Assembly (NCBI RefSeq): GCF_056746865.1 | Contig: NZ_CM163382.1 | Length of the DNA: 64,000 nucleotides | Reading direction: 5' to 3' (one strand) | Shown here: piece after piece, positions 6,435 through 44,533 of the stretch | Numbering within the stretch: the first letter of the stretch is position 1 | Layout: each line of letters begins with the position of its first letter | The notes under the pieces: generated by a model | What the model was told of the DNA's origin: nothing | Seen by the model: only the letters and a program-made list of their open reading frames with translations | Databases searched by the model: none | Position numbers and translations under genes: made by a program

Positions 6435-7667
6435 ATGCAAAATAAATTAGCTTCCGGTGCCAGGCTTGGACGTCAGGCGTTACTTTTCCCTCTCTGTCTG
6501 GTGCTGTACGAATTTTCAACCTATATCGGCAACGATATGATTCAACCCGGTATGTTGGCCGTGGTGGAACAATATCAGGCGGGCATTGATTGGGTTCCTA
6601 CTTCGATGACCGCATATCTGGCGGGCGGGATGTTTTTACAATGGCTCCTGGGGCCGCTGTCGGATCGTATTGGTCGCCGTCCGGTGATGCTGGCGGGGGT
6701 GGTGTGGTTTATCATCACCTGTCTGGCAATATTACTGGCGCAAAACATTGAACAATTCACTCTGTTGCGCTTCTTGCAGGGCATAAGCCTCTGTTTCATT
6801 GGCGCTGTGGGATACGCCGCAATTCAGGAATCCTTCGAAGAGGCGGTTTGTATCAAGATCACCGCGCTGATGGCGAACGTGGCGCTGATTGCTCCACTAC
6901 TTGGCCCGCTGGTGGGCGCGGCGTGGATCCATGTGCTGCCCTGGGAAGGGATGTTTGTCTTGTTTGCCGCATTGGCAGCGATCTCCTTTTTCGGTCTGCA
7001 ACGAGCCATGCCTGAAACCGCCACGCGTATAGGCGAGAAACTGTCGCTGAAAGAACTCGGTCGTGACTATAAGCTGGTGCTGAAGAACGGTCGCTTTGTT
7101 GCGGGGGCGCTGGCGCTGGGATTCGTTAGTTTGCCGTTGCTGGCGTGGATCGCCCAGTCGCCGATTATCATCATTACCGGCGAGCAGTTAAGCAGCTATG
7201 AATATGGTTTGCTGCAAGTGCCTATTTTCGGGGCGTTAATTGCGGGTAACTTGCTGTTAGCGCGTCTGACCTCGCGCCGCACCGTACGTTCGCTGATTAT
7301 TATGGGCGGCTGGCCGATTATGATTGGTCTGTTGGTCGCTGCTGCGGCAACGGTTATCTCATCGCATGCGTATTTATGGATGGCCGCCGGGTTAAGTCTT
7401 TATGCTTTCGGTATTGGTCTGGCGAATGCGGGACTGGTGCGATTAACTCTGTTTGCCAGCGATATGAGTAAAGGTACGGTTTCTGCGGCGATGGGGATGC
7501 TGCAAATGCTGATCTTTACCGTCGGTATTGAAATCAGCAAACATGCCTGGCTGAACGGGGGCAACGGACTGTTTAATCTCTTCAACCTTGTCAACGGAAT
7601 TTTGTGGCTGTTGCTGATGGTTATCTTTTTAAAAGATAAACAGATGGGAAATTCGCACGAAGGATAA
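6435..7667 (+). CDS. mdfA: Multidrug efflux MFS transporter MdfA/Cmr (410 aa)
   Basis: ORF 6405-7667, start at [27 protein letters not shown]; 12-TM MFS profile. Confidence 0.9.
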
Positions 7668-7707: not shown

Positions 7708-7992
7708 TTAATGGTGATGGTCGTCAATCTGGTGTTCGATAACCATCCCTTCACCTACGCTGGCAAGATGGCGAACATAAGGATGCGGGCGGTAAGCCGG
7801 AGCTGGCGCGGGAGCCACATAGACGGTTTGCGGCACAGTCGCGACGCTGACCGCTTGTGGAACGCTGACTGAATCAGGAACCACAACCACTTTGTATCCA
7901 CTCGGCACATCGACGGTGACACTTTGCGCCATCGCCACACCAGTAAAGCCCATTAAAAGCGCGCCCAACAGTAGACAATTTTTCATAATCAT
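7708..7992 (-). CDS. ybjH: Small secreted protein YbjH (94 aa, signal peptide)
   Basis: ORF translation MIMKNCLLLGALLMGFTGVAMA...; gene order. Confidence 0.75.
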   Translation of the reverse strand: MIMKNCLLLGALLMGFTGVAMAQSVTVDVPSGYKVVVVPDSVSVPQAVSVATVPQTVYVAPAPAPAYRPHPYVRHLASVGEGMVIEHQIDDHHH

Positions 7993-8076
7993 TTCGCCTG
8001 AAATAATGCAGCGGGTTAATTTGCGCGAATTATGCAGCCTTCATTCAGGTATTGTGTTGCCGGGCGTGCTGCCGTT

Positions 8077-8892
8077 TTATTGGTTAAATGGCGCTTCGTG
8101 TTTAAGCACTTTATCGATCACATCCAGTACGCCTTCACGGTTATTGGAGCCTGCCCGGTATTTTGCCGCTGCGACGACCGCGCTGCCGGCATTTTCCATT
8201 GCAAAACTAAAGCCTGCCTGACGCAGCATCTCAATATCGTTACCGCCATCGCCAAAGACCACCACTTCGCTGTCGTCTATTCCCCATAATTTCTGCAGTT
8301 GGCGAAGGCCATTGGCTTTATGTACGCCGGGGATAATCAGATCGATACTGCCGTTGCCGGTGTGGACCGGCACCATAATATCGCCGATGGCCTCATGTAA
8401 TGCTTTTTGTACTTGTGGAATCAGTTCATCGGAAAGATTCAGACCAAACTTAAAGAAGATATCTTCTAAGTTGTCAAAGTTATCGACGTATTCCAGACGG
8501 TGATAATACATTTCCGCCACCGTTTTCATGGCATCGTCATATTTTTTGAGGGTATAGGCGCTATTTTTTCCGCAGGCAATAATTTCCACTTCCGGGCGCG
8601 TCAGCAAATGTTCCACGACAGTAGCAAACGCATCCTTCGACAGCTCGCCATTAAAAACATCTTTGCCTTCGCTCACTACCCAGCCGCCGTTTTCAGCCAC
8701 AAAGGCTATTTCATTAGCAATTTCCGGAAAGAAAGAGATCAACTGATAATATTGATTCCCGCTGGCGACCACAAAGCGAATGCCTTGTGCTTTCATTTGC
8801 TGATACTGAGCCATAAACCGCTCACGGTTATAGGTTTTTTGATCGCTTAAGAAAGTACCATCCATGTCTACCGCAATTAATTTAATGCTCAT
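8077..8892 (-). CDS. ybjI: HAD-family FMN / sugar phosphatase YbjI (271 aa)
   Basis: ORF translation [15 protein letters not shown] (HAD motif I DxDGT). Confidence 0.85.
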   Translation of the reverse strand: MSIKLIAVDMDGTFLSDQKTYNRERFMAQYQQMKAQGIRFVVASGNQYYQLISFFPEIANEIAFVAENGGWVVSEGKDVFNGELSKDAFATVVEHLLTRPEVEIIACGKNSAYTLKKYDDAMKTVAEMYYHRLEYVDNFDNLEDIFFKFGLNLSDELIPQVQKALHEAIGDIMVPVHTGNGSIDLIIPGVHKANGLRQLQKLWGIDDSEVVVFGDGGNDIEMLRQAGFSFAMENAGSAVVAAAKYRAGSNNREGVLDVIDKVLKHEAPFNQ

Positions 8893-10100
8893 CAACTATT
8901 CTCCATCGCCGTCTGCGTTTTGGTATCGGGTTTGGCGACGGCTTTCGCGACAATAGCCGCGAGAATAACCAGCGCCAGTACAACCAGCATTGCACTACGT
9001 AATCCATAATGTTCGCCGAGATAGCCCAGCAGTGGCGGCCCGACGAGGAAAGCCAGATAACCGGTCGTTGCTACCACACTGACGCGGGTTGGTGCATCGG
9101 GGCCGGTATCGCTGGCGGCAGAAATGGTCAGCGGGAAGCCCAGCGAGGCACCCAGTCCCCAAAGTACAACAGACACCCCAGCGACCCAGGCGCTATCGAC
9201 AAAAATAATCAGCCCAATACCCAACGCTCCCATTAGTGCACTGGCCCGAACCACGGCAACGCGACTGTAACGGTCGATGAACCAACCGCCGGTAAAGCGT
9301 CCAACAGTCATCCCCAGGGTAAAACCGGCATAAATCAGCGAGCCGGAAGTAGGGCTAAAACCGTGACCGTCAACCATTAATAAGGGTAACCAGTCGTTGG
9401 CAGAACCTTCGGCAAAGGCCATCGCCAGCACCACAACACCAATCAGCAGCAACTGGATATCGCGATAAAAAGGTACGCCTTTTTCACCATGCTGGGTGCC
9501 ATCGGCAGCATTTTTGCCCGTACCGTCAGGGATTGCCTGAATGGCGATATAAATAGGCGCGATGCCTACCAGCGCCGCCAATAAAATGTGCACCGTTGCC
9601 GGAACGCCAAAGGCCGTCAGTGCCATCCCGACACCAGCGCCTGCCAGCGTGCCCAGGCTATAAAAACCGTGCATCATCGGCAAAACCGTCTTATTCATTT
9701 CTCGCTCAACGGCAGCACCTTCAACGTTTATCGCCACTTCCGCAGAACCAAAACTTGCCCCAAAGACGCCGAGGCCAACCGCGAAGAGCAGGGGCGATGT
9801 CAGCCAGAGTGCCAGACTTAGTATCATCATCCCGATCAATGCGCAGGACATCGTGACCAGGATGACATTACGCGTCCCAAAGCGTTTCACTAACCACGCC
9901 GAGCAGAGAATACCGCTCATTGAACCGATCGACAGACCAAAGAGGACTCCGCCCATTTCAGCGATCGAAACAGAAAGAATATCGCGGATAGCAGGCGTAC
10001 GGGTTGCCCAGGACGCCATTAACAGGCCCGGCAAAAAGAAGAACATAAACAGCGCCCAGGTTCGGCGTTTCAATGCATTACGTGAAGAATTTACGGTCAT
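8892..10100 (-). CDS. ybjJ: MFS transporter YbjJ (402 aa)
   Basis: ORF translation, multi-TM; position divergent from rcdA. Confidence 0.8.
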
Positions 10101-42454: not shown

Positions 42455-43354
42455 TTACGCGGAAAAAAAGGCGATGAGGATCGGCACTAACAGACTAAGA
42501 ATAAAACCGTGAACAATCGCCGCCGGGACCATATCCAGCCCGCCAGTACGTTGAAGAACGGGCAGGGTGAAATCCATTGATGTGGCACCGCATAAGCCCA
42601 GTGCGGTAGAGCGGCTGCGGCGAATCAGCCCAGGGATCAACATAATTGCAATCAGCTCACGGGCCAGATCATTAAAAAACGCCGCGCTCCCGATTACCGG
42701 ACCAAAAGATTCAGTCAATAAAATACCGGAAAGAGAATACCAGCCGAAACCAGAGGCCATTGCCAGCGCGGTATTGATGGGAAGATCAAGAATAAAGGCG
42801 TTAATTAAACCACCAGTTAATGAACTGGCAACCACCACCACGGCGACAATCATTCCCCGGCGATTAAGGACAATCTGCTTTAAGGTCATGCCATTATTGC
42901 GCAACTGAATACCGACGAGGAAAAGTAGCAGAATTAAGGTGTATTCACTGGCTTCGGTCGCATGTTGTAAGAAAGCCAGTCCACTCAGGCCAATGGCAAA
43001 ACCAATCACTACTACGCCGCACAGTTTTAGCGACTCCAGCGCCATCGCAATACGCGACGGGAGTTTTTCTTGCTGATGGTGATTGCGCCATGGCAGGCCT
43101 CGCTCCAGCCACATAAGGGCGGCAATATTACACAGTAAAATAACGGTAATACTGACGGCGGAATAATGCAGAATCGCCAACAGGTTACTGGCGAGGTTAT
43201 CGAGAAACGCCAGACTGATACCCATAAAAAAGAGAATAAGGTAAACCATCCAGCTTAATAGCTGATTAATAACTCTTAATGCAGCTTTTTGGCGAAGAGG
43301 AATGAGGTAACCCACAATCAGGGGAACCAGAATGATTAACAGCCCAGAAAACAT
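42455..43354 (-). CDS. ybjE: Inner membrane protein YbjE (299 aa; putative lysine exporter LysO)
   Basis: ORF 42455-43402 with start at MFSGLLIILVPLIVGYLI; multi-TM. Confidence 0.85.
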   Translation of the reverse strand: MFSGLLIILVPLIVGYLIPLRQKAALRVINQLLSWMVYLILFFMGISLAFLDNLASNLLAILHYSAVSITVILLCNIAALMWLERGLPWRNHHQQEKLPSRIAMALESLKLCGVVVIGFAIGLSGLAFLQHATEASEYTLILLLFLVGIQLRNNGMTLKQIVLNRRGMIVAVVVVASSLTGGLINAFILDLPINTALAMASGFGWYSLSGILLTESFGPVIGSAAFFNDLARELIAIMLIPGLIRRSRSTALGLCGATSMDFTLPVLQRTGGLDMVPAAIVHGFILSLLVPILIAFFSA

Positions 43355-43514
43355 GAAAACCCAGTCCTTGCAAAGATGAAGTCGAAATGCGCGATGACAC
43401 ACTACTGAAAGCGGAAGGACGAGTAAAGTTGCAATTAAAAGGAAATGTTATGCATAAGGATCGGTAGGGTATTCATTTTCATTTAAAGATATTCTTGCGC
43501 TTTAATTACAAACC

Positions 43515-43740
43515 GCACCGGTGTTGGTGGCGTCAAAATCGCCGAGGCGTTCCCTGAAGGCCGGGGCAGCCCACATGGATGTGGGCTGAGGGCGCGTTTT
43601 ACAGGGATGTTACCTCGCGCCCGACCCGGTAGCCGCAAGGGATAAGTCGAGGGCACCGCGCAGCGGCGATTTTGTTCGCCAGAGCCCGGGGGTGCAGGGG
43701 GCGGCGGCGATTGGCCGCCCCCTGCGCGCTCCCTGCGCCA
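43515..43740. repeat. GC-rich intergenic element with nested inverted repeats (outer 11-bp arms at 43534-43544 and 43664-43674; inner hairpins at 43567-43588, 43591-43623 and 43694-43725)
   Basis: Local GC far above the flanks; several perfect stems of 7-12 bp; no ORF; not a canonical REP sequence. Confidence 0.45.
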
Positions 43741-43800
43741 GTGACTATATGTGGCTTAACACATCAAGGAGCGCAACAGGAAGATGAATCAATATATTTA

Positions 43801-43832
43801 AAAAAGGCCTGACATTGCGCCAGGCCTTCTGC
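43801..43832 (-). terminator. Rho-independent terminator of aqpZ
   Basis: Minus-strand hairpin AAGGCCTGGCGCAATGTCAGGCCTT followed by TTTTTT. Confidence 0.7.
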
Positions 43833-43837
43833 GTTAA

Positions 43838-44533
43838 TTAATTACGTTTTTCCAGCAGGGTCCGGTAAATCAGACCACCGATAATGCCGCCGACAATTGG
43901 CACCACCCAGAAGAACCACAGTTGTTCTAATGCCCAGCCGCCCTGGAAGATAGCAACCGCGGTGCTGCGCGCCGGGTTAACAGAAGTGTTAGTCACCGGA
44001 ATACTGATTAAGTGAATCAGGGTTAAGGCCAGACCAATAGCGATCGGCGCAAAACCAGCAGGAGCGAATTTGTCGGTTGCGCCGTGGATCACCAGCAGGA
44101 AACCTGCACTCAATACCAGTTCAACTACCAGTGCGGAAAGCATGGAATAACCGCCTGGCGAATGCTCGCCATAACCGTTAGAAGCAAAACCGCTGGCTGC
44201 CGCGTCAAAACCCGTTTTACCACTGGCAATTAAATACAGCAGCGCCGCCGCAACAATACCGCCGACAACCTGGGCAATTACGTAGCCAACGACTTCTTTT
44301 GCCGGGAAACGTCCGCCAGCCCATAAACCAATAGTGACCGCCGGGTTAAAATGACCACCAGAAATATGACCAACTGCAAAGGCCATCGTCAGAACGGTCA
44401 GACCGAATGCCAGCGCCACGCCGGCAAAACCAATGCCTAATTCCGGGAAGCCTGCGGCCAGTACGGCACTACCACAGCCACCAAAAACAAGCCAGAAAGT
44501 ACCAAAACATTCAGCTGCTAATTTTCTGAACAT
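43838..44533 (-). CDS. aqpZ: Aquaporin Z (231 aa)
   Basis: ORF with start at [21 protein letters not shown]; two NPA motifs (HFNPAV, VNPARS). Confidence 0.9.

Follow-up and report, generated by a model that had tools for sequence, protein, structure and literature searches.

The GC-rich, hairpin-dense DNA between aqpZ and lysO (ybjE) in a 64,000-nucleotide stretch of Escherichia coli (RefSeq assembly GCF_056746865.1, contig NZ_CM163382.1; the whole stretch is called the window here) is, judged by its sequence, the lysO-proximal copy of the TRIP1 repeat (TRIP1a), which has been renamed the Replication Risk Sequence (RRS) RRS-lysO. The element is thus already known and published. It belongs to a repeat family that extends across the Enterobacteriaceae and shows strong compensatory covariation. 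We consider it highly probable that the RRS is a cis-acting DNA element, not a gene, and that folding of its G-rich strand leads to lagging-strand gaps; this judgement covers the DNA-level mechanism, and the experiments behind it are those in the literature on the K-12 allele. The family alignment further suggests that what selection preserves across the Enterobacteriaceae is the entire fold of the G-rich strand, with all of its hairpins and its GGA-containing loops, and not the G-quadruplex alone. No new entity is described. What is new here is the proposed cross-identification with the Rfam motif TwoAYGGAY, the lack of conservation of the G-quadruplex, the composites made of inverted pairs of units, and the naturally flipped alleles.

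TRIP1 was reported as a repeat of E. coli by Rudd (1999), and TRIP1a has been located at NC_000913.3 915016-915281 (Li 2024, Genes, PMC10888264). The name RRS-lysO and the RRS of ~222 bp come from Pham, Cox, Goodman and colleagues (NAR 2023, PMC10287960; NAR 2024, PMC11194060). Positions 43513-43777 of the window are 95.9% identical to K-12 TRIP1a over 265 nt and represent an allelic variant that is ~4% divergent. The lysO and dusC copies of K-12 have a common 220-bp block with 99.1% identity, and this block corresponds to 43524-43743 of the window, near-exactly the coordinates given in the first-pass annotation (43515-43740). The published G-quadruplex-forming string GGGGGTGCAGGGGGCGGCGG has an exact match on the + strand only, where the G4Hunter maximum is 1.84, and the opposite strand is C-rich. 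The lysO-aqpZ locus, the G-quadruplex string and the orientation are common to the window and the published RRS/TRIP1, and there is no essential difference between the two. The first-pass annotation had suggested a BoxC/RSA-type repeat (BoxC ~56 bp, RSA ~152 bp), but the literature files the element as a family of its own, TRIP1/RRS, that fits no earlier repeat category. The 'PAIR' repeat of Rudd was also considered as the identity of the K-12 pair and was rejected, because the pair is TRIP1. A match to a known repeat family had been named beforehand as the outcome that would make the segment ordinary; the element does match one that is already described, and its DNA-level function has experimental support.

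The window contains hcp, lysO, aqpZ and ybjD, and both the order hcp-lysO-element-aqpZ-ybjD and the orientation of the element are as in K-12. As first placed, the element lies between aqpZ (stop at 43838, terminator hairpin at 43804-43828) and the start of lysO. The gap to the aqpZ stop is ~60 nt, and on the other side the element is situated ~110-160 nt upstream of lysO, depending on the choice of start codon. The description of the segment as unusually GC-rich is borne out by a G+C content of 0.695 for 43515-43740, compared with 0.507 across the window as a whole and 0.37-0.40 in the neighbouring intergenic DNA. The full unit is a bit longer than first reported, as it extends over ~43513-43777 and includes a fourth hairpin. 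Its ends were set by the family alignment A3 (67 copies, see below), and the TRIP1a coordinates were taken from PMC10888264. The parts of the unit are the following.

43513-43777, + strand: complete TRIP1a unit, equivalent to NC_000913.3 915016-915281, 95.9% identical to K-12 TRIP1a
43524-43743, + strand: RRS-lysO core, the ~222-bp Replication Risk Sequence, to which the 220-bp block shared by the K-12 lysO and dusC copies maps
43534-43549, + strand: closing stem P1, 5' arm CAAAATCGCCGAGGCG, inverted repeat
43659-43674, + strand: closing stem P1, 3' arm CGCAGCGGCGATTTTG, inverted repeat
43567-43588, + strand: hairpin 1, terminal loop in ACAUGGAUGU with GGA at 43577-43579, aligning to the first AYGGAY hairpin of RF01731
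43590-43622, + strand: hairpin 2, terminal loop in ACAGGGAUGU with GGA at 43605-43607, aligning to the second hairpin of RF01731
43688-43707, + strand: published G-quadruplex-forming string GGGGGTGCAGGGGGCGGCGG, exact match to the string in PMC11194060
43694-43725, + strand: hairpin 3, perfect 12-bp stem GCAGGGGGCGGC / GCCGCCCCCTGC with arms at 43694-43705 and 43714-43725, overlapping the G-quadruplex string
43726-43774, + strand: hairpin 4, GCGCTCC...GGAGCGC with a variable loop of ~35 nt, after which the unit closes with AAC

Every stem of the nested inverted repeats listed in the first-pass annotation was found in its place. The arms of P1 are 16 nt long and 88% complementary, and they contain the exact 11-mers CAAAATCGCCG and CGGCGATTTTG, whose starts are 130 nt apart. 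Hairpin 1 is formed by the arms CAGCCCACAT (43567-43576) and ATGTGGGCTG (43579-43588), and hairpin 2 by GGGCGCG (43590-43596) and CGCGCCC (43616-43622). In the window, the GGA of hairpin 2 follows that of hairpin 1 by 28 nt. Folded as single-stranded RNA, the 265-nt unit gives -145.6 kcal/mol for the + strand and -135.5 kcal/mol for the - strand, compared with means of -117.8 and -108.4 for dinucleotide shuffles (z = -5.0 and -5.2); none of the 200 shuffles equalled the unit. Because z is about -5 for both strands, the folding energy is uninformative for choosing the strand.

The claim that the segment carries no open reading frame (ORF) stands in substance but not to the letter. Mechanically called ORFs of 31-57 amino acids do overlap 43515-43740, but none of them has a Pfam match, and their frames are open in only 25-26 of the 67 family members. 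Coding potential was rejected on these grounds. In the E. coli copies, the unit is directly followed by a common sequence, (A/G)GA(T/A)GATGAA (43778-43800 in the window, and the equivalent positions in loci L001 and L002). Combined with AAGGAG in hairpin 4, it gives rise to mini-ORFs of 5-27 codons with a Shine-Dalgarno sequence and an ATG, different at each locus. These mini-ORFs (MNQYI*, MMNQHITTS*) were rejected as genes, because they vary by locus and AAGGAG is a part of hairpin 4 that covaries to other sequences. In Klebsiella and Citrobacter, the tail after the unit reads CTCTGA(A/G)A in place of the E. coli sequence.

The segment proved to be a member of a dispersed repeat family, as had been thought possible. 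Of 5426 complete E. coli genomes, 5425 gave megablast matches to 43515-43740; the median was 3 places per genome (range 1-10), and no annotated features lie beneath the matches. Where the lysO copy is 100% identical, the genome contains 3-5 places in total. A second full copy is situated between yohP and dusC, and the dusC copy of K-12 (NC_000913.3 2229122-2229394), ~1.3 Mb from RRS-lysO, is on the opposite strand. Beyond E. coli, a pattern scan of one genome per species yielded 71 loci, all but one of them true relatives, from ten genera: Escherichia, Citrobacter, Klebsiella, Enterobacter, Kluyvera, Pseudocitrobacter, Pseudescherichia, Pluralibacter, Mangrovibacter and Raoultella.

The fold was scored as a 62-pair structure on alignment A3, which holds 67 copies from the ten genera. 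The structure is 94.0% paired, compared with 85.1% in column shuffles, and none of 500 shuffles reached the observed value, although such counts are not probabilities because the copies are related paralogues and orthologues. Compensatory changes occur in 29 of the 62 pairs, with 399 cells altered on both sides. When the partner of each position was moved by 1-3 columns, only 34-42% remained paired. The argument from covariation is carried by this slid-register control and by the number of compensatory pair types. Stem support by compensatory changes across the Enterobacteriaceae had been asked for in the first-pass annotation, and its candidates of a repeat and of a structured RNA agree with these results and with the relatives that exceed the RF01731 threshold (see below). 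The interpretation was partly supported: it was right about a repeat family and a structured element, and the BoxC/RSA and retron readings are unsupported.

The covarying modules are P1, hairpin 1, hairpin 2, a small 4-bp hairpin, hairpin 3 and hairpin 4. Helices 1-3, which form the long P1 that encloses both GGA hairpins, are 96-99% paired with six compensatory pairs; helix 1 alone is 98.9% paired, and both sides have changed in four of its eight pairs. Helix 6 of hairpin 1 is 99.7% paired with four compensatory pairs, and in the inner pair 101/110 of hairpin 2, G-C has changed to A-U in 29 copies. Helix 9 of hairpin 3 is 98.3% paired, with both sides changed in seven of nine pairs, and helix 10 of hairpin 4 is 96.8% paired, with compensation in four of seven. 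In other genera hairpin 4 has the alternative stems ACGTTCAC/GTGAACG and GCGCGCC/GGCGCGC. The search pattern fixed the loop of hairpin 1, parts of its stem and parts of the CCGGG helix, so that those positions are invariant because of the pattern itself; no such constraint applied to P1, to hairpins 2, 3 and 4 or to the left-arm units of composites (see below). The G-rich strand shows 161 G-U pairs and 63 A-C pairs. Neither covariation nor this G-U(T) bias can distinguish folding as RNA from folding as single-stranded DNA, because the strand in question also serves as lagging-strand template in K-12 and folding of the single strand explains the covariation equally well.

What the element does is known from work on K-12. 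The two RRS are situated ~650 kb on either side of dif, and next to each of them RecA and SSB accumulate on the lagging strand; these peaks are gone after deletion of the RRS (PMC10287960). In vitro, Pol I, II and IV are blocked by the G-rich strand of the RRS, at the G-quadruplex, and the replication of M13 is slowed (PMC11194060). Relocated RRS still produce gaps, whereas engineered inversions abolish the gaps and alter topology, and the strand that carries the G-quadruplex in K-12 is the template of the lagging strand (PMC11194060). Cells tolerate the loss of both RRS (lysO and dusC) only when an amplification or a replacement compensates for it, and supercoiling then changes genome-wide (PMC11194060). 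In a single-molecule study, gaps formed at essentially every passage of the replisome when the G-quadruplex strand was the lagging template, and fewer formed in the opposite orientation (bioRxiv 10.64898/2026.06.16.732529). The authors of the RRS work proposed a topological 'relief valve'. The RRS is thus one of two sequences that flank the Ter macrodomain of E. coli and program lagging-strand gaps, and published work shows that the two cannot both be cleanly deleted.

According to this published work, unwinding by the replisome allows the G-rich strand, which is the + strand of the window and the lagging-strand template of K-12, to fold into a very stable structure composed of nested hairpins and a two-tetrad G-quadruplex. 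Polymerases stall at the folded strand, and the lagging-strand polymerase skips onward. A post-replication gap of up to ~2 kb then remains, and SSB and RecA load there. The window copy is presumably a functional allele that works as the K-12 copy does, because its flanking genes and its orientation are those of K-12 and its G-quadruplex string is an exact match. Its + strand is presumably the lagging template as well, judged by K-12 coordinates and synteny; the positions of oriC and dif cannot be read from the 64-kb window.

Several observations weigh against the account given above. The motif of four G2+ runs is present in only 50 of the 67 copies, so the G-quadruplex is not family-wide, and in the units of Citrobacter and Pluralibacter the G4Hunter maximum is 0.84-1.08 and G-quadruplex potential is lost. 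The sequence conservation of the GGA loops is not predicted by a generic model in which any stable fold would do. At lysO-aqpZ, the junction of K-12 and the window occurs in 4077 of 5426 complete genomes and the reversed element in 1295. At yohP-dusC, 3313 genomes are K-12-like and ~2000 align through the flanks alone. In K. pneumoniae, there are ~13 places, a number that suits a dispersed repeat better than a pair of Ter-flanking sequences.

The loss of the G-quadruplex bears on what is conserved. Hairpin 3 is nevertheless maintained by compensatory changes where the G-quadruplex is lost. On this alignment, the G-quadruplex is best regarded as a lineage-specific feature, and the conserved object as the fold of the G-rich strand. 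The comparative data thereby make the features under selection, namely hairpins and GGA loops, separable from the feature stressed in the RRS papers, which is the G-quadruplex.

The reversals are natural variants. At each of the two E. coli loci, the flipped form accounts for a quarter to a third of the complete genomes, as counted from junction-specific megablast coverage and not from inspection of each genome. Compared with 43355-43837 of the window, the flipped lysO alleles (L003 2433-2888, strain 2009C-3133; L042, strain E69) have the whole ~270-bp unit reversed and differ in their short flanks. In these alleles the unit begins 46 nt past the aqpZ stop, and the terminator hairpin of aqpZ is absent. 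The dusC-yohP copy of O157:H7 DEC4E (L002 2479-2753) is demonstrably flipped in comparison with K-12 (L079 823-1095) and L028 1549-1824, so that the G strand is the dusC-sense strand in K-12 and the yohP-sense strand in O157:H7. Strain E69 has both loci flipped, and Escherichia sp. E1V33 has dusC alone flipped. The configuration known as 'inverted RRS' is thus frequent in natural populations of E. coli, and this bears directly on the relief-valve model.

The GGA loops lead to a known Rfam motif. The Rfam scan proposed in the first-pass annotation matched 43533-43672 of the window to the full model of RF01731 (TwoAYGGAY; Weinberg et al. 2010) from end to end, with 29.8 bits and E = 0.028, which is under the gathering cut-off of 43 bits. 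A Klebsiella copy gave no match to the model. Relatives that exceed the cut-off are found in Kluyvera (L044, 54.2 bits) and Pluralibacter (L019, 51.9; L020, 47.2; L018, 46.3), and the left-arm units of Kluyvera and Pseudocitrobacter (L026, L065, L078) score 49.2 bits. In the window, loop 1 reads AUGGAU and fits AYGGAY, and loop 2, AGGGAU, has G for Y; elsewhere in the family loop 2 is AUGGAU or ACGGAC. The GGA loops are also kept in the diverged left-arm units, which stand outside selection by the search pattern. Like TwoAYGGAY, the unit has two adjacent hairpins with A-N-GGA-Y loops inside a long P1 stem, and both are multi-copy in gamma-proteobacteria. They differ in extent, as the Rfam model spans only the first ~140 nt of the ~265-nt unit and hairpins 3 and 4 lie beyond it. 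The literature proposes no DNA-level role for the Rfam family.

In the portion of the 2010 TwoAYGGAY alignment that was covered, by a search of 200 of the 438 supplementary files, the enterobacterial hairpin strings were not found. The portion in supplementary file 99 (PMC2864571) contains multi-copy members from Psychromonas ingrahamii NC_008709. By eye, each of the Psychromonas copies there has one more hairpin downstream, with CACGCCGUCAGGGCGGAAGACC after it, an arrangement that resembles hairpins 3 and 4 and the terminal ...GGAAC in the enterobacterial unit. In view of this arrangement, what Rfam models could in general be the 5' half of some longer repeat. No literature that names TwoAYGGAY was found to concern RRS or TRIP1, and the RRS/TRIP1 publications make no mention of an Rfam relationship, family-wide covariation, inverted-pair composites or naturally flipped alleles.

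We put forward, tentatively and as a possibility that we rate below even chances, that RRS/TRIP1 is the enterobacterial branch of TwoAYGGAY and that the selected feature is a multi-hairpin fold with two GGA loops on the G-rich strand, not the G-quadruplex. An Rfam motif and a characterised DNA element would then appear to be one family, which gives each field a concrete hypothesis and existing mutants with which to test it. If this is true, the TwoAYGGAY 'RNAs' of Psychromonas, gut Clostridia and other bacteria may really be DNA-level elements that produce replication gaps; the other option is that the RRS is also a GGA-loop RNA, a ligand of the CsrA type, that contributes to conditional essentiality.

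Composite elements occur in Citrobacter, Enterobacter, Kluyvera and Pseudocitrobacter. Each consists of two diverged units (61-69% identity) in inverted orientation, with ~90 nt of AT-rich sequence as the centre between them, and the modules are kept in each arm. Examples are L033 ~6600-7360 (Citrobacter), L037 ~7900-8640 (Enterobacter sp. ENT03) and L044 ~9050-9790 (Kluyvera), with the outer termini GGTTCCGTTCAC...GTGAACGGAACC. In the Enterobacter centre (L037 8313-8332), ACTTACAGGAACCTGTGAGT forms a terminator-like hairpin with a T-run behind it, directly 5' of the right-hand unit and conserved among the ENT03 copies. A further E. coli locus, asmA-yegH, carries a full 'type B' unit with the hairpin 4 stem ACGTTCAC/GTGAACG (L027 8742-9017) in only 40 genomes. 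The common allele (L080 ~420-590) has instead an inverted, truncated remnant from which both GGA hairpins are missing. The lysO, dusC and asmA-yegH cases would all be accounted for if one or the other arm of an ancestral inverted pair had been lost differentially. As a corollary of placing RRS/TRIP1 within TwoAYGGAY, the composites could be orientation-proof versions of the element, and the flipped solo alleles of E. coli what remains after the loss of either arm.

Other copies show further variation. Klebsiella units (L005, L006, L045-L048, L071-L076) are bracketed by palindromes of the REP/PU type, GCCGGATGGCGGC...CTTATCCGGCCTAC, and have conserved tails of ~35 nt (5') and ~70 nt (3') beyond the unit, with two distinct types of 3' tail. 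In L004 2433-2753 (NZ_CP148327.1), the two-hairpin core is deleted between the direct repeats ...GGCCGGGG / ...GCCCGGGG, which resembles the reported 125-bp internal deletion of TRIP1b; the record is labelled a plasmid and contains the chromosomal genes ybjD, aqpZ, lysO and hcp. A plasmid origin was rejected, because the 'plasmid' matches in PLSDB carry chromosomal genes or are whole chromosomes, and no phage match to the element was found. Copies of the Klebsiella or Escherichia type also lie on short contigs of metagenome-assembled genomes labelled Desulfacinum (L017), Sporobacter termitidis (L054) and 'Proteobacteria bacterium' (L025), where they are most likely contamination or mis-binning.

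A role of the unit as RNA would not exclude the DNA-level mechanism. The unit may, perhaps, also be a TwoAYGGAY structured RNA in which a CsrA dimer could clamp both GGA loops, and transcripts that contain it would bind or titrate CsrA; we regard this as unlikely. Hairpin 2 reads UUACAGGGAUGU, which has 11 of 12 matches to the CsrA SELEX (systematic evolution of ligands by exponential enrichment) consensus, RUACARGGAUGU. The reading would explain why two GGA loops 28 nt apart are conserved under P1, and the end-to-end match of the window copy to RF01731, the homologues above 43 bits, and the covariation and G-U excess on the GGA strand are in its favour. TwoAYGGAY has been proposed as a CsrA-binding RNA by Gardner & Eldai (PMC4333381), and according to Li et al. 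TRIP1 RNAs would fold stably. Possible carriers could be the 3' untranslated region (UTR) of dusC in K-12 and the 3' UTR of aqpZ in flipped alleles. However, the GGA strand of the window copy and of the lysO copy of K-12 runs antisense to the genes on either side, neither the window copy nor a Klebsiella copy reaches the Rfam threshold, TwoAYGGAY itself has no demonstrated function, and the covariation is accounted for equally well by single-stranded DNA folding of the lagging template. A literature link of CsrA to aqpZ, lysO, dusC or yohP was not found. An independent small RNA (sRNA) gene with its own promoter and terminator was rejected, as consensus scans gave no sigma-70-like promoter and no intrinsic terminator in 43300-43900 and none consistently placed in three composite elements; a sequence TTGCTG-N16-TAAAAA noticed by eye in the centre of the Citrobacter composite falls below the criteria of the promoter scan.

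A selfish origin would make the stalling of polymerases an incidental by-product of stability. According to this explanation, the unit is a decaying repeat like a miniature inverted-repeat transposable element, derived from an inverted-pair composite and lodged between convergent genes. The variable copy number in E. coli and K. pneumoniae, the presence/absence and truncation polymorphisms (the asmA-yegH alleles and the internal-deletion allele), the flipped alleles at both main loci, the composites of Citrobacter, Enterobacter and Kluyvera, and the REP sequences around the Klebsiella copies all agree with it. So does the finding that 15 of the 20 solo units with a callable upstream gene lie 3' of a co-oriented gene and face a convergent gene; because units are mostly between convergent genes, the 'same/opposite' pattern of gene orientation is automatic and uninformative as a test of strand. 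Against this, neither a transposase nor terminal inverted repeats nor a target-site duplication could be identified for the solo units, which lack the ~270-nt inverted arms that composites have. A target-site duplication is not readable at asmA-yegH, because the common allele is an inverted truncated remnant and not an empty site. The reported conditional essentiality, the conserved positions on either side of dif, and compensatory changes that indicate strong purifying selection on structure are hard to square with junk, and we consider a purely selfish element quite improbable. A local cis-regulatory role, either as insulator or terminator after aqpZ or as leader of lysO, appears very improbable: the element is near both genes (~60 nt from the aqpZ stop and ~110-160 nt from lysO), and the 3' end of the unit in E. 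coli copies has AAGGAG followed by ATG and an ORF of 5-9 codons, but the unit also stands beside unrelated genes (dusC, putP, alx, copA, asmA and many others in further genera), both orientations are found at one locus, the AAGGAG forms part of hairpin 4 as its 3' arm, where other subfamilies have GTGAAC or GGCGCG, and aqpZ has its own terminator hairpin before the element. The orphan retron msr/msd remnant suggested in the first-pass annotation can be given practically no weight, as the resemblance is superficial and lies in flanking inverted repeats around hairpins. There is no reverse transcriptase gene near the element, whose neighbours are lysO and aqpZ, no retron-related Rfam family was matched even at E <= 10, and the element is fully accounted for as TRIP1/RRS. 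The DNA-level mechanism is the explanation that we prefer.

Comparison with known systems shows both similarities and differences. Like the CsrA-sequestering sRNAs CsrB, CsrC and RsmZ, the unit has GGA in hairpin loops, at a spacing (28 nt) that suits one CsrA dimer, and RF01731 is listed under Rfam clan CL00106, which we take to be the Csr/Rsm clan. The unit differs in that it contains only two GGA sites and that no dedicated promoter or terminator was found by scan; sRNAs of the CsrB/CsrC/RsmZ type have roughly 9-22 GGA sites. With REP and BIME elements, it shares the properties of a GC-rich, structured intergenic repeat that prefers the 3' ends of convergent genes and is implicated in chromosome topology. 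REPs, in contrast, are palindromes of ~35-40 nt present in hundreds of copies, whereas the element is a 265-nt multi-hairpin unit present in 1-13 copies, and the REPs that flank the Klebsiella copies are distinct in sequence from the unit. The G-quadruplex at pilE of Neisseria gonorrhoeae, the only analogue cited by the authors of the RRS work, also combines a G-quadruplex-forming sequence with a proposed replication-associated gap, but it is a short, single G-quadruplex tied to pilin antigenic variation and not a multi-hairpin dispersed repeat.

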